The notes beneath the pieces are model-generated. The model worked only from the letters and a program-made list of their open reading frames with translations. It was not told where the DNA came from and ran no database searches. Positions 31,054 through 56,833 of a stretch of DNA of 64,000 nt are shown here, piece after piece; position 1 is the first letter of the stretch; each line of letters begins with the position of its first letter. Both the position numbers and the translations under genes were made by a program. This DNA is from an uncultured Dehalococcoidia bacterium. GTDB taxonomy: Bacteria > Chloroflexota > Dehalococcoidia > Lucifugimonadales > UBA826. The stretch lies in the NCBI GenBank assembly GCA_964652755.1, contig CAZZBP010000001.1:10872-74871 (forward strand), written 5' to 3'.

Positions 31054-31704
31054 ATGCCTAGAGAGGATTTCGAGAGAAACTTGAAATTGGTTCAAGACGA
31101 AGTAGTCCAACTTTCGAGCATGGTAGAGAAGGCTATATTCAAGTCTATCGACTCGTTAAAGACACGAGATTTAGGAGCATCTCAACAAGTGATTGATGAA
31201 GATGACATTATTGATGCCAAGCAGGAAGCGATAGAACATAGATGTATTGATTTGATTGCCCTTGAGTCACCTATGGCTGTTGATCTCAGGATCATCATTG
31301 CGGCAATGATGGTGGCCAATGAGCTTGAACGAATGGGTGACTATGCTGAAGGAATCGCCAAAATCAGTTTGGCGATGGGGGAGTTACCTCCCCTCAAACC
31401 ACTTATTGATATCCCAAGAATGGCGGATAAGGCGGTCGATATGTTGCGCCGCAGCATAGAATCTTATGTTAACCGCGATATTGTCAGTGCTAAAGAGGTT
31501 TTCCATGATGACGACGAAGTTGACGGAATGTATGAGCAGGTATACCGAGAACTTTTGACCTACATGATGGGTGATCCGACCACTATAGAGAGAGCTACTT
31601 ATCTATTATGGGTGTCACACGACTTGGAAAGAGTCGCCGATCGTACCACCAATATAGCGGAACGAGTGATGTTTCTAGTCACCGGCAAAACGGAAATGGA
31701 TTGA
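31054..31704 (+). CDS. phoU: phosphate signalling complex protein PhoU
   Basis: It has the duplicated PhoU repeat with E..GD motifs (ELERMGDYAE, DLERVADRTTNIAE). Confidence 0.9.
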   Translation: MPREDFERNLKLVQDEVVQLSSMVEKAIFKSIDSLKTRDLGASQQVIDEDDIIDAKQEAIEHRCIDLIALESPMAVDLRIIIAAMMVANELERMGDYAEGIAKISLAMGELPPLKPLIDIPRMADKAVDMLRRSIESYVNRDIVSAKEVFHDDDEVDGMYEQVYRELLTYMMGDPTTIERATYLLWVSHDLERVADRTTNIAERVMFLVTGKTEMD

Positions 31705-32381: not shown

Positions 32382-32413
32382 TGCAAACTTTTAGGGATCA
32401 TTCTTCAGGCTGG

Positions 32414-33745: not shown

Positions 33746-34725
33746 TATGCCGCCAGTTTTCTAATAGCCGTGGCTATTTTGGCTGAGTCGATCATGTACA
33801 TTGCTTCCATGGGTGGACTGAAAGGCATTGCGGGCACTTCCGGACCTGCAAGCCTGGTTACGGGACCATCCAAATACTCGAAGGCATGTTCTGAAACAAT
33901 GGCCGACACTTCTGCGCCAACCCCGAGTGCCTTGCTATCTTCATGCACTATGATCACTTTACCGGTTTTCATAGCTGTCTGCACAATGGCCTTATCGTCA
34001 ATTGGTCTTACCGTGCGAAGATCAAGTACCTCTACTTCAATTCCTTCAGCCGCAACGGCCTGAGCGGCTTCAAGACAATAATGAACCATAAGCCCATAAG
34101 TGATAACGCTAATGTCATTACCTTTCCGCTTGATATCAGCGCTGCCTATAGGAAGAGTGTATTCTTCGTCAGGCACTTCTCCCTTTACTAATCGATAAGT
34201 ACGTTTATGCTCTAAAAATACCACTGGATCATCGTCCCTAATAGCGGACTTCAATAAACCCTTTGCATCATAGGGTGTTGATGGAGTGATTACTTTCAAA
34301 CCAGGGGTATGAGCGAACAAAGCCTCCACGCTCTGCGAGTGATAAAGTGCACCGCGAACTCCGCCTCCATGAGGGGCACGTAATACCATAGGGGCGTGCA
34401 ATTTGCCCTCAGTGCCATACCGCACCCTCGCTGCCTCTCCTACTACTTGGTTGATTGTAGGCCATATAAAATCACCGAATTCTATCTCCGCTATGGGTCT
34501 CATTCCGTGCATTGCTGAACCCAGTGCGATTCCCGCTATGGAGGATTCTGCCAAGGGGGTGTCTATTACACGATCTTCTCCGAATTCGTCCAGAAAACCT
34601 TCAGTCGCGAGAAATACACCACCTCTTGCTCCAATATCTTCACCCATAATGAATACCCGATTATCCCTGCGCATTTCCTCCTGCATCGCATCTCGAACTG
34701 CCTCGAGAACGGTTTTGATTGTCAT
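33742..34725 (-). CDS. 2-oxoacid dehydrogenase E1 component beta subunit
   Basis: The sequence V...GEDIG..GGVF..T.G....FG..RV.DTPLAE..I.G is present. It shares 4-nt overlaps with both neighbouring genes. Confidence 0.92.
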   Translation of the reverse strand: MTIKTVLEAVRDAMQEEMRRDNRVFIMGEDIGARGGVFLATEGFLDEFGEDRVIDTPLAESSIAGIALGSAMHGMRPIAEIEFGDFIWPTINQVVGEAARVRYGTEGKLHAPMVLRAPHGGGVRGALYHSQSVEALFAHTPGLKVITPSTPYDAKGLLKSAIRDDDPVVFLEHKRTYRLVKGEVPDEEYTLPIGSADIKRKGNDISVITYGLMVHYCLEAAQAVAAEGIEVEVLDLRTVRPIDDKAIVQTAMKTGKVIIVHEDSKALGVGAEVSAIVSEHAFEYLDGPVTRLAGPEVPAMPFSPPMEAMYMIDSAKIATAIRKLAAY

Positions 34726-36095
34726 CGGTATTCACCAGGTTCCAACCCGGAATCCGATACGACATGTTGATAGAAATCGCTAGTTTCCGGGTACGGTGCT
34801 GCCTCAGCTTCTTCGGTAGCCTCATTTACAAGACGTCGGGCTTCATCTTGTATAATCTGGTCCTCATTATCGTCAAGCTGTCCAATATCCCGGAGGTTTG
34901 TTCTGAGTAACTTCAGTGGATCACGAGTCTTAGCTTCTTCAATTTCTTGCGCTGAACGATAGATGGAATCGTCGTCGTCACTCGTGTGAGGTAAATATCT
35001 TTCTACTTGGGCCTCGATTAAGGTGGGGCCTTCCCCTGCTCTTGCTCGTTTGGCCGCTTCCGCTGTCACCTCATAGACTGCAACGATATCGCAACCGTCC
35101 ACTTCAAAACCTGGCATGCCGTAGCCTTCTGAGCGTGAAGCAACGCTTTCAACCGCCATTTGTTTTCTTAATGGGACTGAAATTGCATATTTATTGTTCT
35201 CGCAGAAGAAGATAACAGGAAGCTTATGTATTGATGCAAAGTTCATTGCTTCATGTGTATCACCAGCACTCGAAGCTCCATCCCCAAAGTAAACAATTAC
35301 CACCCTATCTTCATTGTTCATCTTCGCTGCCAGTGCAGCCCCGACTGCTTGCGGCACATGGGTTGCAACAACATTAGATAAATTCACGATACCGTATTCT
35401 GGGTGAGCTCCATGTGTAGGGAACTGACGGGCACCGCTGAGGGGTTCACCTTGTTTGGCGAGGAAACCTTTGATAATTTGTGTCGGAGTTAGACCCAAGT
35501 CAAGTAATACTGCGAGATCTCGGTAGTAAATGTAGAAGAGATCATATTTCTTTTGCAGAGCTGCTACAGAACCTATTTGACCAGCCTCATGGCCTTGCGA
35601 AGAAGCCATGATAGCTGCCTTACCCTGCCGGTTTAACATCCATATTCGTTCATCAAGTGTGCGGCATAGAACCATACGTCGGTACATGTGAAGGAGATCT
35701 TCATTTTTTAAAGACTTGTTTAGAATGACATCTTGCGCTGGATTTTTTGTATCAACACGTTTGGCGATATCTTGTGACAGATCTGCCTTCGCGTCATCTA
35801 CGGTTAAGATGTGACCATCAAATTGCTCGGGCAATGATTCTTCTGCAATACTATTAGCACCTGCCTCACGAACGGCCCTTTCAAATGCCCCATCTTGAAG
35901 ATTAAGCTGCGCGTCGCTAGTGTCTTCCGCAGAGTCATCTCGAGATATTTCTTGTTGGTCTTTGTCGTCAGCCATTCCGATCCATTTGCCCTTTGGGTTG
36001 CCAAGATCGATTTTCTTTGAGGTTGTCCTCGCATTTCTGGAATCTTTCTGGGTGTTCCAGAGATGATTTTCTCTTATTGAGTCTTCCTCAGCCAT
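34722..36095 (-). CDS. 2-oxoacid dehydrogenase E1 component alpha subunit with about 110-aa acidic N-terminal extension
   Basis: It has the TPP-binding core (YRDLAVLL, GDGASSAGD.HEA.NFA, FFCENNKYAIS). The conserved region starts near residue 130. Confidence 0.88.
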   Translation of the reverse strand: MAEEDSIRENHLWNTQKDSRNARTTSKKIDLGNPKGKWIGMADDKDQQEISRDDSAEDTSDAQLNLQDGAFERAVREAGANSIAEESLPEQFDGHILTVDDAKADLSQDIAKRVDTKNPAQDVILNKSLKNEDLLHMYRRMVLCRTLDERIWMLNRQGKAAIMASSQGHEAGQIGSVAALQKKYDLFYIYYRDLAVLLDLGLTPTQIIKGFLAKQGEPLSGARQFPTHGAHPEYGIVNLSNVVATHVPQAVGAALAAKMNNEDRVVIVYFGDGASSAGDTHEAMNFASIHKLPVIFFCENNKYAISVPLRKQMAVESVASRSEGYGMPGFEVDGCDIVAVYEVTAEAAKRARAGEGPTLIEAQVERYLPHTSDDDDSIYRSAQEIEEAKTRDPLKLLRTNLRDIGQLDDNEDQIIQDEARRLVNEATEEAEAAPYPETSDFYQHVVSDSGLEPGEYR

Positions 36096-43618: not shown

Positions 43619-44809
43619 TTAACTTGCAGTTAAATATCTCCTAAGAGCGAGACTCGCGGGAAGTATCGTCGCTGTAACTACCCCCATTATTATTACCGAC
43701 CGGTTAAGACCTACCATGTCAGCAATCAATCCATAGCCGAGGGGAGCTCCTACAGTACCTATCTCGTTAGTGGTATAAAAGAGGCCATAGTACCTTGCTC
43801 TCTTGTTTGGTGGTATGAATTTGGCTACAGTGGCGTAGAGAACACTTGATGTTCCGTTGAGCCCTACTCCAAGAACTATCGCGAGTGGCCATAGGATATG
43901 TGAAGGCACGAAAATCGCGCTTATTATCAACGTTGTCGTCATCCCTTTCGTCGCCCATATCAGTGGCAAAGTGCCTGTACGATCGTCCAGCCAACCGCAA
44001 ATATATTTTCCAGCTGCCCCACCGGCGAACAACAGAAATAACGCTATGCCTACTTCAGATTCTCCCATTCCTCTCTCTACGAAAATGAATGGAAAAAATA
44101 CCAGTGTGGAGCTTCTGGTGGCACTGTCAAGAATACCGATTCCACTTAATACGATGAACCCGACAATTGTGGAAGTTTCACTAGAATTTTCCCTAGCCCA
44201 TTCTTCTGGAGAATGTTCGACTAGCGGTTTTCCCATGTCAAAGTGTCGTCGGGTGAATACAGACATGCACATGAAAGCAGATCCTACTGCACCTACAATC
44301 CACATCGTTGCGCGCCAGCCCCCCAACATTACAAGCAATCCTGCCACTATTGGTGCCATCATCTTGCCGATATCACCCGAAAAGTTAACGGTGCCTACCG
44401 CTGCAGATCTTCCAGCTGAATTGTATGCTCTGGATACCATGCTTGATGCTAGAGGATGTTGTGTACCTCCCCCAAGTCCACCTAGTGCTGTTGCTCCGAT
44501 AAGAGGCAAGAAGCCAGGGAGAACTGCCATTACTATTAGTCCCAATCCCACCCAAAGATTTCCACCTAAAAGCATCCAAAATTCGCCGGTTGACTCGGCA
44601 ACTAATCCCGCAGGAATCTGGAGTATCGCAGAGGAACCGTTATAGACAGATCTTAAGAGTCCGATTGAGGTATAACTAAGATTTAGCTCTTCTTTTATGT
44701 GTGGAAGCAATGGCACAAGGAGTGCAAAAAACAAATCGCTCCATACATGCATGGCGGATCCAAATATAAGAACTTTTTGCGGAGAAGGGGTATTAGTTCT
44801 TGAGTTCAT
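43619..44809 (-). CDS. MFS transporter
   Basis: A 396-aa protein with about 12 hydrophobic segments and a central loop. The substrate is unknown. Confidence 0.75.
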   Translation of the reverse strand: MNSRTNTPSPQKVLIFGSAMHVWSDLFFALLVPLLPHIKEELNLSYTSIGLLRSVYNGSSAILQIPAGLVAESTGEFWMLLGGNLWVGLGLIVMAVLPGFLPLIGATALGGLGGGTQHPLASSMVSRAYNSAGRSAAVGTVNFSGDIGKMMAPIVAGLLVMLGGWRATMWIVGAVGSAFMCMSVFTRRHFDMGKPLVEHSPEEWARENSSETSTIVGFIVLSGIGILDSATRSSTLVFFPFIFVERGMGESEVGIALFLLFAGGAAGKYICGWLDDRTGTLPLIWATKGMTTTLIISAIFVPSHILWPLAIVLGVGLNGTSSVLYATVAKFIPPNKRARYYGLFYTTNEIGTVGAPLGYGLIADMVGLNRSVIIMGVVTATILPASLALRRYLTAS

Positions 44810-44826: not shown

Positions 44827-45978
44827 TTATGGACCTTCATCACGAGATTGTCTTATATCTCTTGGAGGGAACTCCTGATATGGATATTTGGCCAGGGAAC
44901 TTTCATCTATTTCGATACCTAATCCCGGAGTTTCAGGCAGTTCTATGTATCCGTCATTGACCTCAAAAGGGTTGACAGCTATTTCTTTACCGAAGTTTTC
45001 TAAGTTAAGAAAGTATTCTGTGATTAGGAAATTTGGCATAGTAGCTGAAACTTGTATTGTGGCAGCTAGACCTAGCGTCGTGCTGTTGTAGTTGTGGGGC
45101 GACACAGCTACAAAATAAGGCTCTGCCATTGCGCCAATTTCTTTTAGCTCAAGGATCCCGCCTACGTTGCAAACATCGGGATTTATTATGTCTGCTGCTT
45201 GCTTTTCAAAAACCTCTCTGAACTCAAATTTCGTGTAGAGTTCCTCTCCCGTTACAACTGGGATTCTTATCTCCCTTTTTGCAGCTGCCAGGGCGTCTAT
45301 GTTTTCAGCTAGGACTGGTTCCTCATACCAGAATGGCTCATATTCCTCAATCTGGCGAGCTATCCTTATGGCGTGCATAGGCGCTAATCGTCTGTGCATT
45401 TCTACTAATATGTCTACATCATGGCCGACAGCTTGCCTAACAGCCCTTACATTTTTAACGGTCTGGTTTTCTACCTTCTTATCAACAAATGTTCGCCACG
45501 GACCGGGTATCGGATCAAACTTAAGGGCTGTGAAGCCTTGTTCGACCACTTCAGATGCTCTTTCAGCGATGATCCCTGAATCCCATCCGCCGCCGCCCCA
45601 TCCGTTCGCGTAAACTTTTATCCTTTCCCTAACTGGGCCACCAAGTAGTTTGTGAGTGGGGACTCCGCAAACTTTTCCTGTTATGTCCCACATCGCTTGT
45701 TCCAATCCGCTTACAGCGCACCAGAGGTCCATAGCACCCCTTCGGCCTGCAAAGTCATCGTAAACTATCTGCATGAAGTGTTTGATATTCGTAGGATCTC
45801 TTCCTACTAAATACCGTTTAAGCTTGTCTATATGAGCGGTTACCTGTATATCCCTGTCAGCCTGCGTGTAGCACTCTCCCCATCCGTGTATTTCTTCATC
45901 AGTATCGATTCTCACGAAGCAGAGGTTTTTTCCTTTTCCGGGATTAACTAAGTGGTAACGTATATCGGATATCTTCAT
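44827..45978 (-). CDS. enolase-superfamily enzyme (mandelate racemase/muconate lactonising family; acid-sugar dehydratase-like)
   Basis: It has the N-terminal capping domain (VRIDTDEEIHGWGE). The barrel carries FKALKFD-like ALKFDP and the metal ligand contexts D..VE.H, WYEEP and GEE. Confidence 0.82.
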   Translation of the reverse strand: MKISDIRYHLVNPGKGKNLCFVRIDTDEEIHGWGECYTQADRDIQVTAHIDKLKRYLVGRDPTNIKHFMQIVYDDFAGRRGAMDLWCAVSGLEQAMWDITGKVCGVPTHKLLGGPVRERIKVYANGWGGGGWDSGIIAERASEVVEQGFTALKFDPIPGPWRTFVDKKVENQTVKNVRAVRQAVGHDVDILVEMHRRLAPMHAIRIARQIEEYEPFWYEEPVLAENIDALAAAKREIRIPVVTGEELYTKFEFREVFEKQAADIINPDVCNVGGILELKEIGAMAEPYFVAVSPHNYNSTTLGLAATIQVSATMPNFLITEYFLNLENFGKEIAVNPFEVNDGYIELPETPGLGIEIDESSLAKYPYQEFPPRDIRQSRDEGP

Positions 45979-46044: not shown

Positions 46045-46800
46045 TTATTGAGCCGTCCATCCGCCGTCCACTACCACTTCGCTGCCCGTTACAAAACCGG
46101 ATTCGTTTGAAGCCAGATATAGGACTGCATATGCGACTTCTTCAGGTTTTCCATACCGACCCATTGGAATACGGCGAACCATATCGGCCAACCTCTTCTC
46201 ATCGGCCCGGACATCTGCCGTCATATCGGTCTCTATTGGTGCCGGATGTACCGAATTGCAGCGTATTCCCTCAGAGGCGTATTGAATTGCTACGGATTTT
46301 GTCAGGAGCCTTACCGCTCCCTTAGAAGCCTGGTATTGAGGACTACTAAAGTCGCCTCCAACCAATCCCATTTGAGATGAAATATTGACTATGGAGCCAC
46401 CTCCTGATCTTTTCATGGCAGGTATAACCGCCTTAATACCAAGAAATGACCCTTTGGCATTGATATCAAGCACGCGGTCCCAATCCTCTTCAGGGGTATC
46501 TAGCAAGTTCATTCTTGAGGTAACCCCCGCATTATTTACAAGTACATTGAGTCTTCCAAAGGCGCTCGTGGCCTTTGTTACTGCCAATTCCCATTGCGAG
46601 GCTTTTCGAACATCCAATGGAGTGAAGATGCAACTTGTCCCCCCTGCAGATATCTCCGAGGCTAGTTTTTCCCCTTCATCTTCCAGGACATCACCCAACA
46701 CCAATGAGGCGCCTTCTTTAGCGAACATACAAGCTTCAACAGCTCCCATCCCCTTTGCAGCGCCACTAATCAAAGCTACCTTCCCTTTAAGTCTTCCCAT
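46045..46800 (-). CDS. short-chain dehydrogenase/reductase (classical SDR)
   Basis: It has the motifs GKVALISGAAKGMG, NNAG, S...YQASKGAV and the C-terminal VVDGG. Confidence 0.88.
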   Translation of the reverse strand: MGRLKGKVALISGAAKGMGAVEACMFAKEGASLVLGDVLEDEGEKLASEISAGGTSCIFTPLDVRKASQWELAVTKATSAFGRLNVLVNNAGVTSRMNLLDTPEEDWDRVLDINAKGSFLGIKAVIPAMKRSGGGSIVNISSQMGLVGGDFSSPQYQASKGAVRLLTKSVAIQYASEGIRCNSVHPAPIETDMTADVRADEKRLADMVRRIPMGRYGKPEEVAYAVLYLASNESGFVTGSEVVVDGGWTAQ

Positions 46801-47067: not shown

Positions 47068-47096
47068 TTGACACCCCAAAAGGTGAATGTGATACT
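47068..47096 (+). promoter_or_regulatory. candidate sigma70-type promoter for the ACIII locus
   Basis: TTGACA lies at 47068-73, followed by a 17-bp spacer ending in TGT and GATACT at 47091-96. This is about 75 nt upstream of the first ORF of the cluster. Confidence 0.4.
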
Positions 47097-47168
47097 TTTC
47101 GCGCGGTTGAGGATAAACCCGCGTTAGGTCTCCTTAGCCGTAATTTTTTGTCAGGGGTTTAGGCGAAA

Positions 47169-47471
47169 TTGTTAGAGATGGACCCACGGTTTATAGGTCC
47201 GGAAGCATGGGCAGAGATTAGTGTATTTGTCACGAATATCTGGCTGTTTGTATTTTCTATAATCATTTTTGCTTCCAACATGTTGATCGGCCATAACGCA
47301 ATACCGTCGTTGGTCACTTCACGTCATCTTTCATCGTCCTGGCAAAAGATAAGGCCTCCTATCTACGGGGTTGCTATTATCGCATTTGTCGCGGCTTTAT
47401 ATTTTGTTTTTACTGCCTTGCAAGGCGGTCGAAGCGCAATAAAACTTATATATCCCGATTTCTGGATATAA
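47169..47471 (+). CDS. hypothetical small membrane protein (2 predicted TM segments) immediately upstream of actA
   Basis: It has two long hydrophobic stretches (ISVFVTNIWLFVFSIIIFASNMLIG and IYGVAIIAFVAALYFVFTAL). It is on the same strand as actA and ends 34 nt before it. The start is uncertain (TTG 47169 or ATG 47178) and the RBS is weak. Confidence 0.45.
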   Translation: MLEMDPRFIGPEAWAEISVFVTNIWLFVFSIIIFASNMLIGHNAIPSLVTSRHLSSSWQKIRPPIYGVAIIAFVAALYFVFTALQGGRSAIKLIYPDFWI

Positions 47472-47505
47472 GTTGGTTTACGGTTAATCAAGGGAAGTAA
47501 GCAGT

Positions 47506-48120
47506 TTGATACCAGGGGATTTTCAGCCCAAGAGGCCCACAACTGGACAACTTGTAAAATTAGGTATTTTAGGAACGTTTGGACTAGGAATCTTTGTTGC
47601 AATAGTTCTATTCCTCACTTTCGTATTATCCGCTTGGTTGGATAGGCCGTTGATATTTGGTGATAGCGGATTTAGATCGGGACCAGATCAACCGATAGCT
47701 TTTCCGCACACGACTCATGTACAGGAACTGGGCATGGATTGCACGTTCTGCCATCGGAACGTACAGAAGGAGGCAGCGGCTTCTGTCCCAGCTATGGGCC
47801 TTTGTATGACCTGTCATAGTGCTGTTGGCGACGGTCTTGGTGAGATCGAGAAAATGAGATCTCTATACGAGGATGGGAGATCGATCCAGTGGGTTCGGGT
47901 CCACAGGGTTCCAGATCATGTTCACTTCGTACACGAGGCTCACATAAGGTATTTTTCAGAATCTGAAGGCATACAACCAAGTCAAGTGTGTCAAAAATGC
48001 CACGGTGAAGTAGGGGAAATGGAGAAGGTCAGGCAAGTAGAGACATTGAAAATGGGGGATTGTGTTAGTTGCCACAAAGAAAACGCAGCTCCTACAGACT
48101 GCACAACCTGTCATTATTAG
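47506..48120 (+). CDS. actA: alternative complex III subunit ActA, membrane-anchored pentahaem cytochrome c
   Basis: It has five CxxCH motifs (CTFCH, CMTCH, CQKCH, CVSCH, CTTCH), an N-terminal TM helix, and a TTG start with AAGGGAAG upstream. Confidence 0.85.
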   Translation: MIPGDFQPKRPTTGQLVKLGILGTFGLGIFVAIVLFLTFVLSAWLDRPLIFGDSGFRSGPDQPIAFPHTTHVQELGMDCTFCHRNVQKEAAASVPAMGLCMTCHSAVGDGLGEIEKMRSLYEDGRSIQWVRVHRVPDHVHFVHEAHIRYFSESEGIQPSQVCQKCHGEVGEMEKVRQVETLKMGDCVSCHKENAAPTDCTTCHY

Positions 48121-48130
48121 GGGCTCGTAA

Positions 48131-50395
48131 ATGGCGCTGACTAGAAGACAGTTTTTAACACTTATGGGAGGTTCCGCTGGAGCAGCGGTATTTTTCCAGG
48201 CGTGTGGGGTTCCTGAAAAGGAGTTGCTCATAGATTCGCCTGTGGAAATGCCTGAAGATCTAGTCTCAGGAACTGATAACTGGTATGCGACGGTGTGCCG
48301 GCAATGCGACACATCAGAAGGGATAGTCGTTAGGGTTATGGAGGGGCGTGCGAAAAAAATAGAAGGAAACGTCGATTATCCGGTCAATTTGGGAAAACAT
48401 GGCCCCCGTTGCGAAGCTGGGCTGCAGAGTCTTTACCACCCAGATCGAATCAGTGCTCCTCTTGTTAGAACAGGGGATCGAGGATCTGGTGAATACAGAG
48501 AGATAAGCTGGGAAGACGCCATCACTCGTCTTACCTCACAGTTGAATGAACTATCTGATTCCGGTGAATCAGATAGGGCTGTACTGGTTACTAACCCCGT
48601 TGGAGGTCATTTAGGCCTAGTAATTCAGAGCTTTACAGAATCGATTGGAATGCGACGATTCGTGCATGAGCCTCTAGAAACCTCAGTGTTACGTAAAGCC
48701 ATTAGTGAGGTCTTTGGTCAAGAATCGATTCCTGATTTTGATATAGATAATTCTGATTATTTACTGTCGTTCGGGGCCGACTTTCTGAGCACTTGGATCT
48801 CGCCCACGAGATATTCCCGTGGATACGGTGAGTTTCGTCAAGGACATGAACGAAAACGGGGCAGACTTGTACATGTGGATTCACGATTTTCCGTTACGGC
48901 TGCAAATGCTGACGAATGGGTCAGGGTAGAGCCCGGCACAGAAGGTATGCTGGCCCTTTCGATAATTCAAGTAATCTCTTCAGAGGGGGATGTTGATAGC
49001 GCAGTGGTTGACAGGCTCACAGGCGAAGACATTTCCTGGCTCAACTCGTACGCTCCTGAAAATGTATCTGCGGAAACAGGGGTAACTGCAGAAACGATCA
49101 GACGGATTTCTATGGAGTTTTCGCACAGCTTGCATCCTCTCGCAATAGGCGGGGGGTCGGCTTCTGCCCACTCCAACGGGCTTGCTGCATTGAAGGCTGT
49201 TTACTCGTTGAATCATATAGCTGGAAATATTGGAGCGAAGGGTGGTGTATTACTCAACCCAGACTCGCCTCTGAAAGGGATTTCTACCGCAGCACCTGGT
49301 AATTCGTTTAATGAGTTCCAGAGGCTTACAGAAGACATGGATTCAGGCAGAGTAAAGATGCTGCTGGTTAGAGGTGCGGATCCTTACTATGGACTTCCAG
49401 AAGTAGCGGCCTTTAAAAGCAGGTCGTCTAATGTTCCACTTATTGTCAGTTTCTCTGGGATGATGGATGACACTACATCGATGGCGGATCTAATCCTTCC
49501 TGAGAATAACTACTTGGAAGACTGGGGCACTGATGTTCCTCTTGCGGGCGTCGGTTACCAGACGATCGGGTTTCAACAGCCCGTAGTGAGGCCATTCTTC
49601 GAGAACAGGGGCGTTAACTTAGGCACAAGAAATTTTGCTGATGTACTCCTTACCGCTGCTCAGGTGATGGAAAAAGATATTGGTCTATCAGGAGACACTT
49701 ACAAAGAAATAATCGTAAATGGAGCCAAGCAATTGTATGACCTCGGTGGAGGATCTGTGATCGCATCTTCGTTTGAGGCTTTCTGGAATGGGATTCTCCA
49801 ACGTGGCGGGTGGTGGGACACTAAGGTCAAGGGGCCGGTTTCTGTTACTCCTGCGCGTCTTGACGGCGTGCCGGCACCTGTGATCAGCGGGAACGGGGAG
49901 TTTTTCCTTCAGCCTTTCGCTTCTGCATCCCTGCTAGACGGCAGGAGTGCATCGCTTCCCTGGATGCAGGCCATGCCAGACCCGATATCTACAGCAACAT
50001 GGCAAACCTGGGTAGAGATTAACCATAGAGTAGCGGAAGAACGGGGAATTAAAGAGGGTGACGTGATTGAAATCAGCTCGGCTAGAGGCACTATCACTGC
50101 CCTGGCCATGCCCAATCCCGCGACTCCTCCTGATACGGTATCAATTCCATTTGGGCAGGGCCATAGAGATGGCGGAAGATACGCTTCAGGCAGGGGTTCA
50201 AATGTGTTGGCGATTCTCGATGCAGTACATGATGAAGGAACTGGATCCCTTGCATGGTCGGCGAACAAGGTGAGTATTAGAGCGACGGGTGACTGGGTCA
50301 GAGTTCCTAAGTTTGAAAACACGGTTTCAGAGTTCCCGAGAGATGAACACAACCACATTATTGAGTTGACGACTGAAATAGAAGACGACCATTGA
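48131..50395 (+). CDS. actB: ACIII subunit ActB1-like, molybdopterin-oxidoreductase-fold protein with Tat signal
   Basis: It has the twin-arginine signal MALTRRQFLTLMGG. The fold is MopB-like and 754 aa long. The N-terminal Cys motif is degenerate (CRQCDTSE...C). Confidence 0.8.
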   Translation: MALTRRQFLTLMGGSAGAAVFFQACGVPEKELLIDSPVEMPEDLVSGTDNWYATVCRQCDTSEGIVVRVMEGRAKKIEGNVDYPVNLGKHGPRCEAGLQSLYHPDRISAPLVRTGDRGSGEYREISWEDAITRLTSQLNELSDSGESDRAVLVTNPVGGHLGLVIQSFTESIGMRRFVHEPLETSVLRKAISEVFGQESIPDFDIDNSDYLLSFGADFLSTWISPTRYSRGYGEFRQGHERKRGRLVHVDSRFSVTAANADEWVRVEPGTEGMLALSIIQVISSEGDVDSAVVDRLTGEDISWLNSYAPENVSAETGVTAETIRRISMEFSHSLHPLAIGGGSASAHSNGLAALKAVYSLNHIAGNIGAKGGVLLNPDSPLKGISTAAPGNSFNEFQRLTEDMDSGRVKMLLVRGADPYYGLPEVAAFKSRSSNVPLIVSFSGMMDDTTSMADLILPENNYLEDWGTDVPLAGVGYQTIGFQQPVVRPFFENRGVNLGTRNFADVLLTAAQVMEKDIGLSGDTYKEIIVNGAKQLYDLGGGSVIASSFEAFWNGILQRGGWWDTKVKGPVSVTPARLDGVPAPVISGNGEFFLQPFASASLLDGRSASLPWMQAMPDPISTATWQTWVEINHRVAEERGIKEGDVIEISSARGTITALAMPNPATPPDTVSIPFGQGHRDGGRYASGRGSNVLAILDAVHDEGTGSLAWSANKVSIRATGDWVRVPKFENTVSEFPRDEHNHIIELTTEIEDDH

Positions 50396-50423
50396 TGTCC
50401 TAATGGTCGGTAGGAGTAAGTAA

Positions 50424-51179
50424 ATGGCTGAGAACGGCCAAGAAAATAGCAAATGGGGAATGGTAGTGGACGTAGACCGATGCACTGGCTGCAACGGATG
50501 CGTGGTGGCATGTCAGTCCGAAAATAACATCCCCATAAATTTGGAAGAACATTTTAACCAACGAAGAGCTATCCAATGGATCAGGGTAGAACGCTATTGG
50601 GAGGGTGAGTATCCTGATGTTAAGGCCAGGTTTATCCCGATAATGTGCCAACATTGTGGCAATGCTCCATGCGAACCCGTATGTCCTGTTTACGCCACGT
50701 ACCACAATGAGGAAGGACTGAATGTCCAGGTATATAACCGTTGTATTGGCACTAGATTCTGTGCCAACGGTTGTCCCTACCATGTCAGATTTTTTAACTT
50801 CTGGGAGCCTCAATGGCCCGATAGTTTAAAGAATCAACTTAATCCCGATGTCACTGTGCGTAGTAGGGGAATTATGGAGAAGTGTAGTTTCTGCATTCAG
50901 AGAATACGTAGGTCAACGAGGGAATCAGAGCGCGACGGTATCGAACTGGAAGACGGTGACAGGGGATTGAACCCTGCATGTGTAAATTCCTGCCCAACGA
51001 GCGCTCTTACATTCGGTGATTTTAATGATGAGGACAGCCAGGTTTCCCACATGAAGTCAGACGCTATGTCAGGTGAACATGGGAGAGGTTACCGCCTCAT
51101 GGATAACCTCGGGACTGAGACTAACGTGATTTATCTTAAGAAAGTTGATGATTCTGTAGGAGCCGTGCATGGCCACTGA
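50424..51179 (+). CDS. actB: ACIII subunit ActB2-like, 4Fe-4S ferredoxin-type iron-sulfur protein (PsrB/NrfC-like)
   Basis: The cluster motifs are CTGCNGCVVAC, CQHCGNAPCEPVCP, CIGTRFCANGCP and CSFC...CVNSCP. Confidence 0.85.
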   Translation: MAENGQENSKWGMVVDVDRCTGCNGCVVACQSENNIPINLEEHFNQRRAIQWIRVERYWEGEYPDVKARFIPIMCQHCGNAPCEPVCPVYATYHNEEGLNVQVYNRCIGTRFCANGCPYHVRFFNFWEPQWPDSLKNQLNPDVTVRSRGIMEKCSFCIQRIRRSTRESERDGIELEDGDRGLNPACVNSCPTSALTFGDFNDEDSQVSHMKSDAMSGEHGRGYRLMDNLGTETNVIYLKKVDDSVGAVHGH

Positions 51180-52641
51180 TGCGGCTAAAGCTGATCAATA
51201 CGAGGTAGTGGAGCAGCCCTACGCGGAAACCGATAATTCAGTCGAGACAAGAAAGGCTGCCTCTGACAAATTACTCGGCATTCATAAAATCACCTCAAAT
51301 CGGTTCTGGCAGTTCGCCGTACTAACTGGGATCATGTTTGTGTTTGGGATAGTTGGCCTTGCGATGAGGCTAAACTCGGGATTTGATGATAGGGGTGCGT
51401 GGGGATATTACGTAGCGATCTTTTCTTTTCTCATGACGACGACGGCCGCCGCTCCCATGGTAGCAATTGCACCACGAATTGCGAATGCCCACTGGCGAAG
51501 ACCAATATCAAGGGCAGCGGAGATATGGACTCTCGCCGGGTGCCTTAATCTAATTCTGTACATTCCTCTTATATGGCTTCTGCCTAGTTTGGAGAATGGT
51601 AGGCGCAGCCTCTGGTTTTATGGGCAACAGGGAAGCAAAGGAGATTTTTGGACTGGCTTCGAGTCGGTGCCGGCATACTCGCCACATATTTGGGCGACAT
51701 TGGCCATCGTTGCCTTGATTTTATTGGGCTTAGCCCTTGTTTGGTTGTCTTGCCTGCCAGACTTCGCTGTCTTAAGGGAACAAGGTGAAGGCTGGAGGAA
51801 AAAATGGGGTAGGAAGTTGTCTCTAGGTTGGGTAGGGTCAACAGCTCAATGGAACTGGCAATATCACAGAATGGGCATAGTAGGTGCTTTATATTTTATG
51901 ATGCTGGTGTTTGTACATTTTCTAATAAGCGTGGAATTCCTTATGGTTCATGTGCCTGGATGGATAGATTCTCTTTACCCGATAACCCATGCCCATAATG
52001 CACTTCAGGCCGGAGTGGCTACTGTAATGCTCACCATATTCTGTCTGAGACAGTTTGGGGGATATAAAGATTATATTGGTCTCGATCAGATGTGGGGACT
52101 CGGCAAGTTGATGCTGGCTTTGTCTCTTCTTTGGTTCTGGTTCTGGTTCTCCAGCTTCAACATTTACTGGTATGGGAAAAAACCCTCCGAATTATCAGTT
52201 TTAGAGCTGTTAGTTAAAGGGCCGTACAGGGAAATTTTTATAGCAGAATTCTTATTAGTATTCATTATCCCCTGGTTCACCTTGATCTGGAATCCCATAA
52301 GGCGCAGTGTTTGGGGTCCCACGATAATTGCTGTCTCAATACTATGTGGAACACTTTTGGATAGGATTCGCTTGTATGTTGGGGCTTGGGATGTCGCGGG
52401 AAGAGATTTCGCGAGTATGCTTCAAATGGAACTAAGCGAGGTTCCAGAAAAGATACCAACTCCGGACATTGCCGATATGTTTTTGATTGTCGGTTTTATC
52501 GGGGGTTCCATATTTTTATTCATGATGGCTACAAGGTTATTGCCAGCAATTAATATATGGGAGCAGAAAGAACTCCTTTTGTACAAAGCAGAAATTCAAT
52601 ACCACAGAACAAAGGTCACGGTGTTGGGGAAGTCTAGATAA
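51169..52641 (+). CDS. NrfD/PsrC-like polytopic membrane subunit, ActF-like paralogue of ActC
   Basis: A 490-aa polytopic protein. It shares WG.Y/F....F.F and WRRP[IV][ST]RAAE with the next gene but is more divergent. It overlaps the end of actB2 by 11 nt. Confidence 0.7.
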   Translation: MATDAAKADQYEVVEQPYAETDNSVETRKAASDKLLGIHKITSNRFWQFAVLTGIMFVFGIVGLAMRLNSGFDDRGAWGYYVAIFSFLMTTTAAAPMVAIAPRIANAHWRRPISRAAEIWTLAGCLNLILYIPLIWLLPSLENGRRSLWFYGQQGSKGDFWTGFESVPAYSPHIWATLAIVALILLGLALVWLSCLPDFAVLREQGEGWRKKWGRKLSLGWVGSTAQWNWQYHRMGIVGALYFMMLVFVHFLISVEFLMVHVPGWIDSLYPITHAHNALQAGVATVMLTIFCLRQFGGYKDYIGLDQMWGLGKLMLALSLLWFWFWFSSFNIYWYGKKPSELSVLELLVKGPYREIFIAEFLLVFIIPWFTLIWNPIRRSVWGPTIIAVSILCGTLLDRIRLYVGAWDVAGRDFASMLQMELSEVPEKIPTPDIADMFLIVGFIGGSIFLFMMATRLLPAINIWEQKELLLYKAEIQYHRTKVTVLGKSR

Positions 52642-52709
52642 TCAGAACTGTTAGAGAAACGAATAACCGCCAGTTCAAATACTGTGCAAAGAAGAATAAG
52701 AATATATAG

Positions 52710-54119
52710 ATGCAAGAACACGAACAACTTAGCCAGAAACAGATCAATGACGATCTGCTAAGGGACGTCCTAACCGTACCGAAATGGTGGCTGCCCGCAG
52801 TTACTTTCCTCGCAATAATAGTTGCTACAGGACTTGGGGCATTCAGTTTCATGGTTTATCACGGTGTCGGGGTAACCGGTCTCAACAGGCCGGTTATGTG
52901 GGGATTTTTTATCGCCAACTTTGTTTTCTGGATTGGTATTAGCCACGCGGGTATTATGATCTCAGCCATTCTTCGCCTAACTCAGGCTGAATGGAGGCGC
53001 CCGGTTACCCGTGCGGCGGAGGTGATGACGGTTTTTTCTCTGGTAGCCGCTCTTCACACACCTTTATTTCACGTCGGCAGGCCATGGAGAGTTCTTTATT
53101 GGATCTTTCCCTATGATTTTGACAGAGGGATTTGGCCCAATATTAGATCTCCATTTGTGTGGGATCCGAGCGCTGTTGGGACTTATCTTATTGCAAGTAC
53201 CCTGTTTGTTTTAGTATGTCTTTTGCCGGATGTAGCCATTCTCAGAGACCGATCGAAGAACGCTATCATGAAGAAAATATATGCTTTCTGGTGTTTGGGA
53301 TTTAGAGGGACACCTCGTCAGTGGAAGCTACAAACGGTGGCGGGTATCCTCCTGTCTGCTTTAGTACTTCCAGTATTTGTGTCGGTGCATTCCATAGTTT
53401 CCTGGGACTTTGCGGTACTTATCGGTGTAGAAGGATGGCACTCAACCATATTTGCACCCTATTTCATTATAGGAGCCATCCACTCCGGAGTTTCAGCCGT
53501 GGCGATGCTGATGGCTCTTGCGGTCTGGCTGTATAAATTAGATAAGTACATCAAACCAGATCATTTCGATGCGATAGCGAGACTATTAATTGTCGTGGCG
53601 ACCACGTGGTTCTTTTTCTTCTTTTTGGAATGGGTATATGCCTTGTACACACTCGAGGCTCCTGAGATTGCGCTTAGAGAGCTGCAGGTATTCCAGCAAC
53701 CTTACGGACCATTGTTCGCACTATTCATAATTCTTTCTTTCGTGATTCCAGTGCCTATATGGCTTTTCAAGAGGTTCCGGAGAAGTGCTGTGATCATGTT
53801 CTGGACAACTATCTTGGTAAACATAGGTATGTGGTTGGAAAGATTTCTCATAGTCATACCTGGTCTGGCAAGAAGGAGCCACATGACATTTGATTGGGGA
53901 ACATACCATCCCTCTATTATTGAGATACTCATCGTTGTAGAGACGTTTGCATTTGTTGCATTAGGGATGCTGCTTTTTGCAAAGGTGTTTCCTCTGATAC
54001 CACTGTTTGATATCAAGGAAGGTATGGTTTTCCGACATGTGGTAAAGGTTGGGCGAAAGACGATACCTGCATCGATCAGGGAAGGTCTTCCACATCACTA
54101 TTATGAAAAGAATCAATAA
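52710..54119 (+). CDS. actC: ACIII subunit ActC (NrfD-like quinol-interacting membrane subunit)
   Basis: GLNRPVMWGFFIANFVFWIGISHAGIMISAILRL....WRRPVTRAAEVMTVF...H.GRPW matches my recollection of the ActC signature. It directly precedes actD. Confidence 0.78.
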   Translation: MQEHEQLSQKQINDDLLRDVLTVPKWWLPAVTFLAIIVATGLGAFSFMVYHGVGVTGLNRPVMWGFFIANFVFWIGISHAGIMISAILRLTQAEWRRPVTRAAEVMTVFSLVAALHTPLFHVGRPWRVLYWIFPYDFDRGIWPNIRSPFVWDPSAVGTYLIASTLFVLVCLLPDVAILRDRSKNAIMKKIYAFWCLGFRGTPRQWKLQTVAGILLSALVLPVFVSVHSIVSWDFAVLIGVEGWHSTIFAPYFIIGAIHSGVSAVAMLMALAVWLYKLDKYIKPDHFDAIARLLIVVATTWFFFFFLEWVYALYTLEAPEIALRELQVFQQPYGPLFALFIILSFVIPVPIWLFKRFRRSAVIMFWTTILVNIGMWLERFLIVIPGLARRSHMTFDWGTYHPSIIEILIVVETFAFVALGMLLFAKVFPLIPLFDIKEGMVFRHVVKVGRKTIPASIREGLPHHYYEKNQ

Positions 54120-54140
54120 AAGAGCAGCTTAAAAGGATCT

Positions 54141-54659
54141 GTGATGGCAAAGAGAAGTGTATTGGGACTCTATACTGAGGAAGACTCAGCGGCTGACGCA
54201 CTAGACAATTTGAGAGAGGCTGGTTTCGACGAAGGAGAATATGAAATCCTTACAGGAACACCTTACCCTGAAGGTACTTTTGGGGAGGCAGAACCTCAGC
54301 ATCACCTGTATCGCTGGCCATTAATTGGTGCGGCTTGCGGGTTTACAGGTGGTTTGATAATAACTGCAGGTACTCAGTTGGCTTATCCGTTAATCACAGG
54401 AGGGAAGCCCATACTGTCCATTCCACCAATGGCTATCATCATGTATGAAGGCACCATGCTTGGAGCCATAATATTTACCATAATAGGTATCATTTTTGAG
54501 TCCAGATTGCCCAGAATATTTATGGGTGCCTACAGCGAAAAGATCACTGAAGGTCATATTGGTGTCACTGTTACAACAGAGGAAGGTCGTACGGGAGATG
54601 CTGAGGAGGCTCTTAAGAAAGCCGGTGCTGAAGATGACATTATCAGAGGATGGGAATAA
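54141..54659 (+). CDS. actD: ACIII subunit ActD (DUF3341-type membrane protein)
   Basis: It has an N-terminal soluble domain (GLYTEEDSAADALDNLREAGF) followed by 2 TM segments. The size and position are typical. Confidence 0.75.
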   Translation: MMAKRSVLGLYTEEDSAADALDNLREAGFDEGEYEILTGTPYPEGTFGEAEPQHHLYRWPLIGAACGFTGGLIITAGTQLAYPLITGGKPILSIPPMAIIMYEGTMLGAIIFTIIGIIFESRLPRIFMGAYSEKITEGHIGVTVTTEEGRTGDAEEALKKAGAEDDIIRGWE

Positions 54660-54696
54660 GAAAAGAGTATTTCTGAATGAGTTTTAGGCGATTTTT

Positions 54697-55362
54697 ATGA
54701 AGGTTAATAAATTCACGGTATGTATCTTTGGGGCGCTGGTGATGGCAGCGGTTTCAACTGGTTGTTACAACTCCAGAACCGGTGAGGTTAATTTTGGGGG
54801 CGCTATCCACTTTGAATTACCTGCGTTTCCTCAGACAGGTTCCCATGCGGTTCAGGTCTTTTCAGAGATGCATTTCTCGCCTGCCTATCGCTCACAAGAG
54901 GTGCCACGTCTCCTTCCTCCCGATGGCTCGGTACCTGTGACAGGCGCTGAAATTAAGCGATTGGATGTCGAACAATTTAAGGAGCTAAGCTTAACGCAAG
55001 ATGCTCTGTCAGCATACGACGATGGGCGTGCGACCCGCCTGTACCAAGTCAATTGCCAGGTTTGCCATGGTAGCAATCTAGATGGTGCAGGCCCGATTAC
55101 GACGCTTAAGAGTTCAAGAAATGATGGGTCTAACGCTTTGAATAAAGGCTCAATGCCTGTTGACCTCAATTCAGAGAGAGTTAGGACTCTCAGTGACGGT
55201 GAGATATTTGGATACATCACATGGGGTGGTAGAGCCGGTTTATCTGCCGCTTCTCGCGATAAGAGGTCACCGGCGATCATGCCTCAATTTAGTAAGTTAT
55301 TATCGGAAGAGGAACGGTGGGAACTTGTTTGGTTTCTACGACAGAGAATAGGTGCTGAGTGA
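54697..55362 (+). CDS. actE: ACIII subunit ActE, monohaem cytochrome c lipoprotein
   Basis: The signal peptide ends in the lipobox-like STGC. It has a single CQVCHG haem motif and a distal Met in MPQF. Confidence 0.78.
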   Translation: MKVNKFTVCIFGALVMAAVSTGCYNSRTGEVNFGGAIHFELPAFPQTGSHAVQVFSEMHFSPAYRSQEVPRLLPPDGSVPVTGAEIKRLDVEQFKELSLTQDALSAYDDGRATRLYQVNCQVCHGSNLDGAGPITTLKSSRNDGSNALNKGSMPVDLNSERVRTLSDGEIFGYITWGGRAGLSAASRDKRSPAIMPQFSKLLSEEERWELVWFLRQRIGAE

Positions 55363-55449: not shown

Positions 55450-56376
55450 TTAGATGCGCCCGACGAGATGCTTGAGGAGGGCTCTGCTTCTAGCTACGGA
55501 AGCCACTGGATCTAAACCTACAGGATAAATTTGGGCTGCAATTTCTGTAGCACCTGCTGCCGCAAAACCCCTGAGTTTCTCCTCAACCTCAGCTTCGTCA
55601 CCGATAATGGCCATTTCGGCGGGACTTTCTACACCCTCAATGTGCAACATTGCTCTGTAGCTGGGGAGGTCACCGTATCTCTCGAAATGCTCCGATGCCT
55701 TCTTGAAAGCAGCAGGTTTGTCATCTGAGACTGCTAACGGTACGGCCACTACGATACGAGGGCTATCCTTACCAGCTTCTGTTGCTGCCTTCTGAATCTT
55801 GGGAACGATATGAGTTCTAACGGTTTCTGGTCCGGCCATCCAGGTTATGGTACCGTCGGCAATTCGCCCTGCTGTTCGGAGCATTCGAGGCCCGAGCGCT
55901 GCGATTAATATAGGGAGATGGTGCTGATCACTTCCGGTGAATTTTGTGGTTGCGCTAAAGATTTCCCCTTCATAATCGACGGAACCTTTGGCGGTGAGGG
56001 CCCGGACTATTTCTAAGTACTCTTGCATGTGAAGAGCAGGTCTGTGGAATTTCATACCAAATCGATTTTCAACGACAGGTTTGTGTGAGACCCCCATACC
56101 TAAATTAAACCGACCGCGAGTTGCTGACGAAGTAGTTATTGCCTGCTGTGCCATGGCAATAGGATGCCTTAGAAACGTGGGGGTTACAGCTGTTCCCATT
56201 TGTATTTTAGTGGTAATTTTCCCGGCCAAGCTAAATATGGTCATTATGTCCGCGTCCATAATGTGAGCGGCCCAAAAACTATCGAATCCATCCTGTTCCG
56301 CTTCTAACACCTGTTGAACTTGGCCCGACACGGTGCCCGCTGACCCAATAGAACCTATGAATAAACCTATTTTCAC
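55450..56376 (-). CDS. luciferase-like monooxygenase (LLM) family oxidoreductase, probably F420- or flavin-dependent
   Basis: A TIM-barrel LLM sequence (GFDSFW, GTAVTPTFLRHP, RF.LG.GVSH). The cofactor cannot be assigned from the sequence alone. Confidence 0.75.
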   Translation of the reverse strand: MKIGLFIGSIGSAGTVSGQVQQVLEAEQDGFDSFWAAHIMDADIMTIFSLAGKITTKIQMGTAVTPTFLRHPIAMAQQAITTSSATRGRFNLGMGVSHKPVVENRFGMKFHRPALHMQEYLEIVRALTAKGSVDYEGEIFSATTKFTGSDQHHLPILIAALGPRMLRTAGRIADGTITWMAGPETVRTHIVPKIQKAATEAGKDSPRIVVAVPLAVSDDKPAAFKKASEHFERYGDLPSYRAMLHIEGVESPAEMAIIGDEAEVEEKLRGFAAAGATEIAAQIYPVGLDPVASVARSRALLKHLVGRI

Positions 56377-56407: not shown

Positions 56408-56833
56408 TCATTTCTTGATGCGAGTTAGTCTTGGTAGAAGGTTTCCTTTCTCGCTTTCTCCGATAACAGACGCTACTGCAAAATTCTTAGAATGAGAGAG
56501 AGACAATGCAAGGTGATCGAGACCTATCTGCTCTGCTCGGAGACGTGCCCTTCCGTGAAGTTCTATGTACGGTGCCTGTCCTCTTTGACGTCTGATTTCT
56601 ATGTCCTTCCAGCCGACACCTCTGATTCCTGTACCAAGGGCCTTCATAACTGCTTCTTTAGCGGCGAACCGACTAGCCAATTGAGGGTGTCTACCTCGGC
56701 AATACTGCCGCTCCTCCTTTGTGTAGATACGCTCCAAAAAACGGGGACCGTAAGTTATCGCAACCCTTCCGATTCTTTCAATCTCGATTATATCCACACC
56801 GGTTATTAGCATTGGTAGTACTCTCCAATTCAA
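56408..56833 (-). CDS. acpS: holo-[acyl-carrier-protein] synthase
   Basis: The motifs GVDIIEIERI and FAAKEAVMKALG are present, along with SLSHSKNFAVA. The start is possibly the internal Met at 56812. Confidence 0.88.
   Translation of the reverse strand: MNWRVLPMLITGVDIIEIERIGRVAITYGPRFLERIYTKEERQYCRGRHPQLASRFAAKEAVMKALGTGIRGVGWKDIEIRRQRGQAPYIELHGRARLRAEQIGLDHLALSLSHSKNFAVASVIGESEKGNLLPRLTRIKK

Follow-up and report, generated by a model that had tools for sequence, protein, structure and literature searches.

A well-known complex, alternative complex III (ACIII), has been solved from Rhodothermus marinus (6F0K), Flavobacterium johnsoniae (6BTM), Roseiflexus castenholzii (6LOD) and Chloroflexus aurantiacus (8K9E), with the composition ActABCDEF(G/H). 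The R. marinus structure holds one [3Fe-4S] and three [4Fe-4S] clusters, the B1 domains of the solved canonical complexes contain no cofactor and ActD is exclusive to ACIII (PMC5928083), while the quinol site of R. marinus ActC comprises His139, Ser164, Asp169 and Asp253 (PMC8076601). An ACIII from RBG-9 Chloroflexi has been described as ActABCDE (PMC3971608). Our study describes the gene content, motifs, predicted folds, conserved architecture and genomic context of an act operon in a stretch of 64,000 nucleotides from an uncultured Dehalococcoidia bacterium (assembly GCA_964652755.1, contig CAZZBP010000001.1, positions 10,872 to 74,871), hereafter the window, in which all positions are numbered. 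Judged from sequence, it is likely that this operon encodes an ACIII-family enzyme of SAR202-type marine Dehalococcoidia, i.e. a membrane quinol:periplasmic-acceptor oxidoreductase that replaces cytochrome bc1. This assignment, rather than one to the Psr/Ttr/Arr enzymes or to Qrc, was based upon an incomplete FS0 motif and the lack of a molybdenum-ligand cysteine in the MopB-fold subunit, the CIGTRFC motif of the ferredoxin subunit ActB2 and the retention of the ActC quinol tetrad. That no oxidase gene is linked to the operon is unremarkable in itself; the distinct part is a variant architecture that is shared clade-wide.

Operon layout and signature subunits

Eight open reading frames (ORFs) on the + strand form one tight operon at positions 47169-55362, with intergenic spacings of -11 to +68 nt. 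The seven genes named in the preliminary description of this DNA were all found again on the + strand, at unchanged coordinates, by ORF calls, motifs and profile matches; the eighth, at 47169-47471 and with two transmembrane (TM) helices, had not been named there. The operon was compared with loci that an ActC alignment had picked out in a scan of one genome from each species. Their gene order was laid out by phmmer, and three classes were distinguished. Class I (the window, L001, L003-L014, L087 and L088, and in part L002 and L084-L086) has the order sTM-A-B1-B2-Fl-C-D-E, in which sTM is the small first gene and Fl a second NrfD-like subunit; in L014, sTM follows actE. This architecture was seen in all 16 loci that span the whole operon and partially in the four shorter ones. 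It is retained even where Fl shares no more than 30-32 % identity with that of the window, and every named class I locus belongs to Chloroflexota/Dehalococcoidia/SAR202. Class II comprises 10 loci, mostly from Acidobacteriota and one from Anaerolinea, with the order A-B1-B2-C-D(-E), a split B and, in 9/10, no second NrfD gene. Class III comprises ~58 loci from many phyla with the canonical order A-B-C-D-E-F and a fused B of ~1000 aa.

The subunits that are diagnostic of ACIII were all recovered, as the preliminary description had proposed. ActC, the NrfD-like protein with predicted quinol binding (52710-54119, + strand, 469 aa), is 36-39 % identical to the ActC chains of solved ACIII (6lod_C, 2.4e-84; 8k9e_C, 1.7e-81; 6f0k_C, 2.1e-80; 6btm_C, 2.1e-72), and in the alignment R. 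marinus H139, S164, D169 and D253 have their counterparts in its H121, S147, D152 and D233, respectively. This tetrad was invariant or near-invariant in 41 aligned ActC sequences, serine being replaced by threonine in one class I sequence. ActB2, the ferredoxin (50424-51179, + strand, 251 aa), has no signal peptide and contains 15 cysteines arranged 4+4+3+4; its third motif reads C107-I-G-T-R-F-C113-x3-C117-P, with Thr110 where four-cluster proteins have the second cysteine, and this CIGTRFCxxxCP signature was present in 72 of the 76 ACIII-family loci collected. ActB2 is therefore predicted to hold 3x[4Fe-4S] and 1x[3Fe-4S], which would fit the R. marinus structure, and it scored below cutoff against the NCBIfam models for TtrB (117 bits, cutoff 416) and ArrB (133 bits, cutoff 450). 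ActD (54141-54659, + strand, 172 aa) matched PF11821 (formerly DUF3341) over residues 6-164 (2.1e-27; 96 bits, cutoff 25.7) and is highly conserved in class I.

The two cytochromes were similarly conserved. ActA (47506-48120, + strand, 204 aa) has five CxxCH motifs and a hydrophobic N-terminal helix that would anchor it in the membrane, and both were kept in 14/14 class I loci; its TTG start was confirmed by conservation of the N-terminus MIPGDFQ, and its Pfam match was Cytochrome_C7 (3.6e-11). ActE, a monohaem cytochrome c lipoprotein (54697-55362, + strand, 221 aa), has a single CxxCH (CQVCH), a distal MPQF motif and the lipobox VSTGC. The lipobox cysteine and the MPxF motif are conserved across class I, and the protein matched Pfam Cytochrome_CBB3 (8.5e-7) and Cytochrom_C (2.1e-6).

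The start that had previously been given to the locus, 47068, is the position of a promoter-like site (47068-47096, + strand), consisting of TTGACA, a 17 nt spacer and a TG-extended GATACT, ~80 nt 5' of the first gene. The site had 10/12 matches in a consensus scan; it is a consensus match only, and such sites are rarer across the region than in shuffled sequence.

The second NrfD-like subunit and the small first gene

The gene for Fl (51169-52641, + strand, 490 aa, ~10 TM helices) lies between actB2 and actC, and not after actE. The window protein had no match in Pfam or NCBIfam, and 79 matches at E <=1e-30 were found in a library of 1.84 billion representatives. Searched as a single sequence against the PDB by phmmer, Fl matched ActC at 1.9e-18 and ActF at 7.9e-9. 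A profile of 68 Fl sequences matched ActC over its full length at 150-170 bits and ActF over TM helices 5-8 (the second half) only, at 55-77 bits; PsrC was not matched by this profile in the PDB. Profile-profile scores from hhalign were 370-438 for Fl against the ActC classes and 268 against ActF, with 244-342 between ActC and ActF. The AlphaFold2 (AF2) model of Fl (pLDDT 87) displayed ~ten TM helices in an ACIII-type NrfD fold and was closer to ActC (Foldseek TMq 0.72-0.74) than to ActF (0.56-0.61) or PsrC (0.30). By eye, the Fl motifs WRRPISRAAE, LPDFAVLRE and DRIR resemble the proton-path motifs of ActC.

The positions of the quinol site are unconserved in Fl, where clade-wide counts showed the equivalents of His139, Ser164 and Asp169 to vary, as they do in ActF. 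A second quinol site in Fl was considered after Glu, Ser and Glu had fallen on three of the four positions in a pairwise HMMER alignment, and was rejected when the multiple alignment and clade counts showed no conservation. Our data support Fl filling the role of ActF by functional analogy, as a second, quinone-less NrfD module.

Orthology is a separate question. In an unrooted neighbour-joining (NJ) tree, ActC, ActF and Fl formed three clades, each recovered in 100/100 bootstraps; Fl nested within ActC in 0/100, and a recent tandem duplication of the adjacent actC was rejected on this basis. When the tree was rooted with Escherichia coli NrfD, HybB and DmsC, 86/100 bootstraps joined Fl to ActC and 3/100 joined it to ActF, although distances in this tree are near saturation and the grouping with ActC may well be a long-branch artefact, through attraction of ActF to the outgroups. 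On balance, we lean towards Fl not being an ActF orthologue.

The alternative that survives best is that this is an ordinary ACIII with its genes reshuffled, in which Fl would be a true, slower-evolving ActF orthologue moved before actC, ActB would merely be split, the small ORF would be an unrelated neighbour or an ActG-like accessory protein, and nothing would be mechanistically distinct. The lack of conserved quinol-site residues in Fl, as in ActF, agrees with this, as do the three separate clades seen without an outgroup, with Fl not inside ActC, and the possibility that long-branch attraction produced the rooted result; a split ActB is also found in the 10 class II loci. However, phmmer, HMM profile, hhalign and Foldseek, as independent measures, all placed Fl nearer to ActC than to ActF, the Fl profile aligned to ActC throughout and to ActF in part, ActF and Fl came together in so few rooted bootstraps, and both the sequence and the position of the small ORF are conserved across full-length class I loci. 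Furthermore, class II, which contains the closest non-Chloroflexota relatives found by ActC (42-45 % identity), lacks the second NrfD in 9/10 loci, yet class I and class II were not recovered as a clade in the NJ tree (0/100). Taken together, we regard a reshuffled ACIII as possible but doubtful.

We retain the assignment to the ACIII family and not the textbook actABCDEF set. The preliminary description had called the locus a complete ACIII, and of this the family membership stands, whereas the textbook composition does not, since ActB is split, the second NrfD probably falls outside the ActF clade and there is an extra subunit gene. The split of ActB (48131-50395 and 50424-51179) is a variable feature of ACIII and is not disqualifying. 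Nine loci from Acidobacteriota and Anaerolinea (L016-L021, L025, L027 and L029) were observed to have a split ActB, ActC and ActD and no second NrfD-like gene, and this ActABCD(E) form may be a distinct functional type.

The small first gene, sTM (47169-47471, + strand), encodes a protein of ~97-100 aa with two TM helices. Its true start is probably the ATG at 47178 (MDPRF...), because an N-terminus beginning MDP is conserved. A homologous ORF was found by phmmer in 13/13 other full-length class I loci, 5' of actA in 12 and 3' of actE in L014, and an unannotated gene of 96-99 aa occupies the equivalent position in L087 and L088, where it was matched by size and position. Residues W14, H42, P46, S47 and R62 are invariant, and the protein has a GHxxIPS motif and the C-terminus WPDYWI. 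Profile searches found no match in Pfam or in the PDB, including the solved ACIII chains, which led us to reject sTM as ActG, ActH or another known protein; no homologue was seen in the phmmer layouts of class II or III loci. Its conserved linkage suggests that sTM may be a clade-specific extra subunit or assembly factor and a putative member of the complex.

The MopB-fold subunit, Qrc and the molybdoenzymes

ActB1 (48131-50395, + strand, 754 aa) has a twin-arginine (Tat) motif, TRRQFL, and directly after the Tat signal a lipobox cysteine, Cys25 (FQACG), which is invariant in the class I B1 alignment. Its FS0 motif is incomplete: in C56xxC59xxxE63 the third cysteine is replaced by Glu, and the canonical fourth cysteine is Gly, with a cysteine (C94) three residues further on. 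At the position of the molybdenum-ligand cysteine of ArrA (HSSVCAEA), ActB1 has Glu, and none of the ~65 ACIII-family B1 domains aligned has a cysteine there. The NCBIfam molybdoenzyme equivalogs fell far below their cutoffs (PhsA 185 bits, cutoff 694; ArrA 164, cutoff 1600; TtrA 67, cutoff 1750). The view put forward in the preliminary description, that this subunit is not a bona fide molybdoenzyme, was thus upheld by the FS0 and ligand positions, by the profile searches and by the lack of a cofactor-insertion chaperone gene in the window. A Pfam scan that covered all but one of the ~55 non-overlapping ORFs of >=140 aa (the exception being 8946-9380, in the ribosomal cluster) found no TorD/NarJ/DmsD-type chaperone, which is weak evidence, as such a gene is often, yet not always, linked to molybdoenzyme operons.

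A full CxxCxxxC...C FS0 motif was present in 30/67 ACIII-family B1 domains (class II 9/10, canonical 19/43, class I 2/14). Within class I, L011 and L012 have it intact, the subgroup of the window has part of it and L009, L010 and L013 have lost it completely, and this graded loss among loci that keep the operon indicates that FS0 is dispensable. ACIII complexes with the full motif may possess a fifth Fe-S cluster. The VDSRFSxTAANAD motif of ActB1 resembles the DPRxT motif of true enzymes but is equally conserved in canonical ACIII B1 domains; a common form, (D/E)xRxSxT(A/G)xxAD, is shared by the window B1 and canonical, cofactor-less ActB1 domains. Pfam detected Molybdopterin (85.9 bits), Molydop_binding (47.7 bits) and, weakly, Molybdop_Fe4S4 (23.6 bits) in ActB1. 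This molybdoenzyme-like appearance was considered as a sign of activity and rejected, as other ACIII B1 domains score in the same range and the ligand cysteine is found nowhere among them.

Several observations weigh against ACIII. The best NCBIfam matches of the operon were Qrc equivalogs, all below cutoff and led by QrcB (308 bits) and QrcC (243 bits), and no ACIII-specific model was among the matches. ActB1 scored higher in sequence to ArrA (134 bits) than to the solved ActB chains (99-110 bits), and its AF2 model (pLDDT 79.5 overall, low at 47-64 over the FS0 segment) was likewise nearer in Foldseek TMq to ArrA (0.77) and PsrA (0.73) than to the solved ActB chains (0.65-0.69). Conservation of C56, C59 and C94 in the subclade of the window leaves room for a residual metal site, which ActB1 may conceivably retain. 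The fold search was rejected as a discriminator because the MopB fold is generic and ActB1 is inseparable from true enzymes by this means; all that it shows is that the model has a generic, comparatively undegraded MopB fold.

These Qrc matches raise the next alternative, a Qrc-like complex working in reverse, in which periplasmic donors (e.g. from sulfite, thiosulfate or formate oxidation) would pass electrons through cytochromes c to reduce menaquinone. ActA, ActB1 and ActB2 were all matched best by QrcA, QrcB and QrcC, and B1 and B2, like their Qrc counterparts, are encoded separately. However, the scores lie below the equivalog cutoffs for all of these (83/180, 308/440 and 243/400 bits, respectively), ActC reached only 29 bits against QrcD (cutoff 570), and ActA has five predicted haems where QrcA has six. 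The window also encodes ActD, ActE and a second NrfD, ACIII-defining subunits that QrcABCD lacks (PMC8076601, Table 1), and ActC has a His-type quinol site, compared to Asp120 at that position in QrcD (PMC8076601). A reported richness of SAR202 genomes in genes for sulfur-compound oxidation (PMC5864207) would suit such a complex, which we nonetheless consider very unlikely.

Less likely still is an active periplasmic reductase of the Psr/Phs/Ttr/Arr type with a molybdenum or tungsten bis-pyranopterin guanine dinucleotide cofactor and extra cytochromes, which would fit the 'tetrathionate reductase' reported from SAR202 and the best matches of B1 to ArrA/PhsA profiles and ArrA/PsrA folds, the three Pfam domains, the public name 'molybdopterin-dependent oxidoreductase' of homologues and the full FS0 motif in the deep clade members L011 and L012, but against which stand an FS0 motif that is incomplete in the window and absent from several close relatives with a whole operon, no Cys/Sec at the molybdenum-ligand position, equivalog scores 4-25 times under cutoff, the 15-cysteine [3Fe-4S] signature of ACIII in a ferredoxin that should have 16, no TorD/NarJ-type chaperone gene in the window, the ACIII-only ActD and the occurrence of the same MopB motifs in canonical ACIII, whose structures show a cofactor-free B1 (PMC5928083).

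Returning to ACIII, ActB1 is predicted to be a cofactor-free, catalytically dead relic of the MopB fold. The invariant lipobox cysteine after a Tat signal, together with the lack of a signal peptide on ActB2, suggests that it likely serves as an export carrier, lipid anchor and scaffold for ActB2. Of the three subunits at the outer face, B1 and ActE are predicted to have lipid anchors, which agrees with expectation for the monoderm envelope of Chloroflexota. Some relatives have extra genes between actB1 and actB2 (L001, 8524-9207; L005, 6148-6882 and 6944-7651) that are absent from the window and encode signal-anchored proteins of 227-244 aa. These were rejected as chaperones, since they are signal-anchored, unlike TorD; that of L001 has no Pfam match on record.

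Host, electron transfer and relation to known systems

The preliminary description had guessed at a marine, Dehalococcoidia-related Chloroflexota as the host, and our results agree. The closest protein to Fl (93 % identity) is a 'hypothetical protein [Dehalococcoidia bacterium]'. The MopB subunit has homologues at 57-65 % identity that are entered as 'molybdopterin-dependent oxidoreductase [SAR202 cluster bacterium]', and one at 59 % comes from SAR202 Casp-Chloro-G4. Positions 34700-63200 are syntenic with a 150-kb contig of a SAR202 metagenome-assembled genome (MAG), L088 (GCA_001757045.1), in the order 2-oxoacid dehydrogenase, FtsH, TyrRS, RibF, enolase, SDR, the eight-gene operon, acpS, folD, dnaJ, prmA and gpsA. 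On the basis of these protein matches and this synteny, the host was taken to be a SAR202-type marine Dehalococcoidia.

The act operon is located in a conserved housekeeping neighbourhood. As previously described, its left flank holds genes for a short-chain dehydrogenase/reductase (SDR; 46045-46800), an enolase-superfamily protein (44827-45978) and a major facilitator superfamily (MFS) protein (43619-44809), and its right flank a luciferase-like monooxygenase (LLM; 55450-56376) and acpS (56408-56833). Compared to L088, the sole insertions in the window are the MFS and LLM genes, which flank the operon. The first 14 kb of the window is a ribosomal-protein/secY/adk/map/rpoA cluster, within which a 170-aa ORF with a GTG start (10182-10694) had no Pfam match at 1e-5 and is possibly not a gene but an ORF that is mis-framed or overlaps another. 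The remainder encodes housekeeping and transport functions (YjeF, UbiE/MenG, HtrA, QueA, a two-component system, pstSCAB-phoU, 2-oxoacid dehydrogenase, FtsH, TyrRS, RibF, FolD, DnaJ, PrmA, GpsA and PlsY). A UbiE/MenG-family C-methyltransferase (17104-17823; Pfam Ubie_methyltran, 1.5e-48) is consistent with (mena)quinone biosynthesis in the host. A response regulator and a PAS/HAMP histidine kinase precede a pstS-pstC-pstA-pstB-phoU phosphate uptake cluster at 24242-31704, and on the - strand, at 31716-36095, a lipoate-protein ligase gene is followed by those for 2-oxoacid dehydrogenase E2, E1-beta and E1-alpha.

In agreement with the preliminary description, no terminal oxidase or acceptor gene is linked to the operon: the Pfam scan found no haem-copper oxidase, bd oxidase, Rieske/cytochrome b, extra cytochrome c or cupredoxin among the ORFs scanned across the 64-kb window. 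A CuA (coxB) motif was seen 1.5-4 kb downstream in at least 15 of the ~58 class III loci (about a quarter) and downstream of no class I or class II locus scanned; only CuA counts were used, as the GHPEVY motif was too strict for CoxA. When 14 class I loci were scanned out to 10 kb for motifs of haem-copper oxidase, CuA, bd oxidase, Rieske, extra CxxCH and cupredoxin, nothing consistent was revealed. The absence of oxidase linkage is therefore common to the clade rather than peculiar to this genome.

Homology to the solved ACIII structures allows cofactor content, the direction of electron flow, proton pumping and the acceptor to be proposed. In this scheme, (mena)quinol would be oxidized at the outer-face ActC site formed by H121, S147, D152 and D233, and electrons would enter the [3Fe-4S] cluster of ActB2 and pass through its three [4Fe-4S] clusters to the five haems of membrane-anchored ActA and on to the single haem of ActE, the putative exit haem of the complex. 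ActE would then reduce an acceptor encoded elsewhere, most likely a cytochrome-c-dependent (c)aa3-type oxidase, or possibly cytochrome-c-dependent N-oxide reductases in some SAR202 lineages. ActB1 would take the signal-less ActB2 across the membrane by means of its Tat signal and hold it there with its lipid anchor. ActC and Fl may form a pseudo-symmetric membrane pair that, with ActD, would couple quinol oxidation to proton translocation.

SAR202 bacteria rank with the most abundant cells in the deep ocean and are regarded as probable oxidizers of recalcitrant organic matter, yet little has been written on how their quinol pool is linked to terminal oxidases. Expressed cytochrome c oxidases are reported from SAR202 genomes, and napAB and nosZ from subclade I (PMC5596340). 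In a review table, the complex III entry for Dehalococcoidetes is 'neither' (PMC5826079). The act operon is an obvious candidate for this link. We found neither the sTM-A-B1-B2-Fl-C-D-E arrangement nor an ActC-like substitute for ActF described in the literature, and SAR202 and ACIII are mentioned together in just two papers of the searchable literature, neither of which deals with such an operon. In public databases the subunits are named 'molybdopterin-dependent oxidoreductase', 'anaerobic selenocysteine-containing dehydrogenase' or 'hypothetical'.

From at least 15 SAR202 MAGs, 'tetrathionate reductases' have been reported and taken as evidence of facultative anaerobic respiration (Mehrshad et al., PMC5864207). 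The Casp-Chloro-G4 MAG of that study carries an ACIII-type operon (L087, 7621-15854), and its MopB, FeS and NrfD genes might easily be auto-annotated as a tetrathionate reductase. It is possible that these calls are a mis-annotated ACIII-type operon. More tentatively, the SAR202/Chloroflexota operon could represent an independent two-pump lineage of ACIII, with a second NrfD derived from the ActC line and a new His-bearing subunit with two TM helices, which would serve as the sole complex III of SAR202 and account for the 'tetrathionate reductases' as this complex mis-annotated.

Recognition of ACIII alters metabolic reconstructions, e.g. with regard to aerobic respiration as opposed to anaerobic respiration of sulfur compounds. 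The clade also offers a natural experiment, in that it combines a second NrfD that resembles ActC but has no quinol site, an ActB split in two and an FS0 motif that has decayed to different degrees. The value of these findings lies in the physiology of SAR202 and in ideas on the origin of the two-NrfD design of ACIII, although in kind they would not surprise a specialist in bioenergetics.

Among known systems, PsrABC, PhsABC, TtrABC and ArrAB(C) share with the operon their MopB, four-cluster and NrfD modules, Tat export and a B1 fold that is closest to ArrA/PsrA. The operon differs in having neither a complete FS0 nor a molybdenum-ligand cysteine, in its ferredoxin of 15 and not 16 cysteines, in the addition of cytochromes, ActD and a second NrfD, and in membrane subunits of 10 rather than 8 TM helices. 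QrcABCD, the menaquinone reductase of sulfate reducers, is similar in having a multihaem cytochrome, a MopB-like subunit without cofactor, a four-cluster ferredoxin as a separate protein and an NrfD-like subunit, but the operon has in addition ActD, ActE and a second NrfD, its Qrc scores are sub-cutoff and the expected electron flow is opposite.

The class II loci of Acidobacteriota/Anaerolineae resemble the window in their separate B1 and B2, a Tat signal on B1 (~720-830 aa where the locus is full-length), a B2 with the same signature and the lack of oxidase linkage. Unlike the window, they have no small upstream membrane gene, 9/10 lack the second NrfD and, again in 9/10, B1 keeps the four-cysteine FS0.

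The solved complexes provide the closest comparison. Shared with them are the pentahaem, TM-anchored ActA, a B1 without molybdenum ligand, the one three-cysteine and three four-cysteine motifs of B2, the H/S/D/D site of ActC, ActD, the monohaem lipoprotein ActE and a second NrfD of 10 TM helices with no conserved quinol site. ActB of the window is encoded by two genes rather than as a single polypeptide of ~1000 aa, and no oxidase operon lies downstream of the act genes, unlike in at least 15 of the ~58 canonical loci. The second NrfD gene precedes actC and its product is nearer to ActC than to ActF, whereas canonical actF follows actE, and the operon adds, as its first gene, a conserved protein with two TM helices that has no sequence counterpart among the solved chains.

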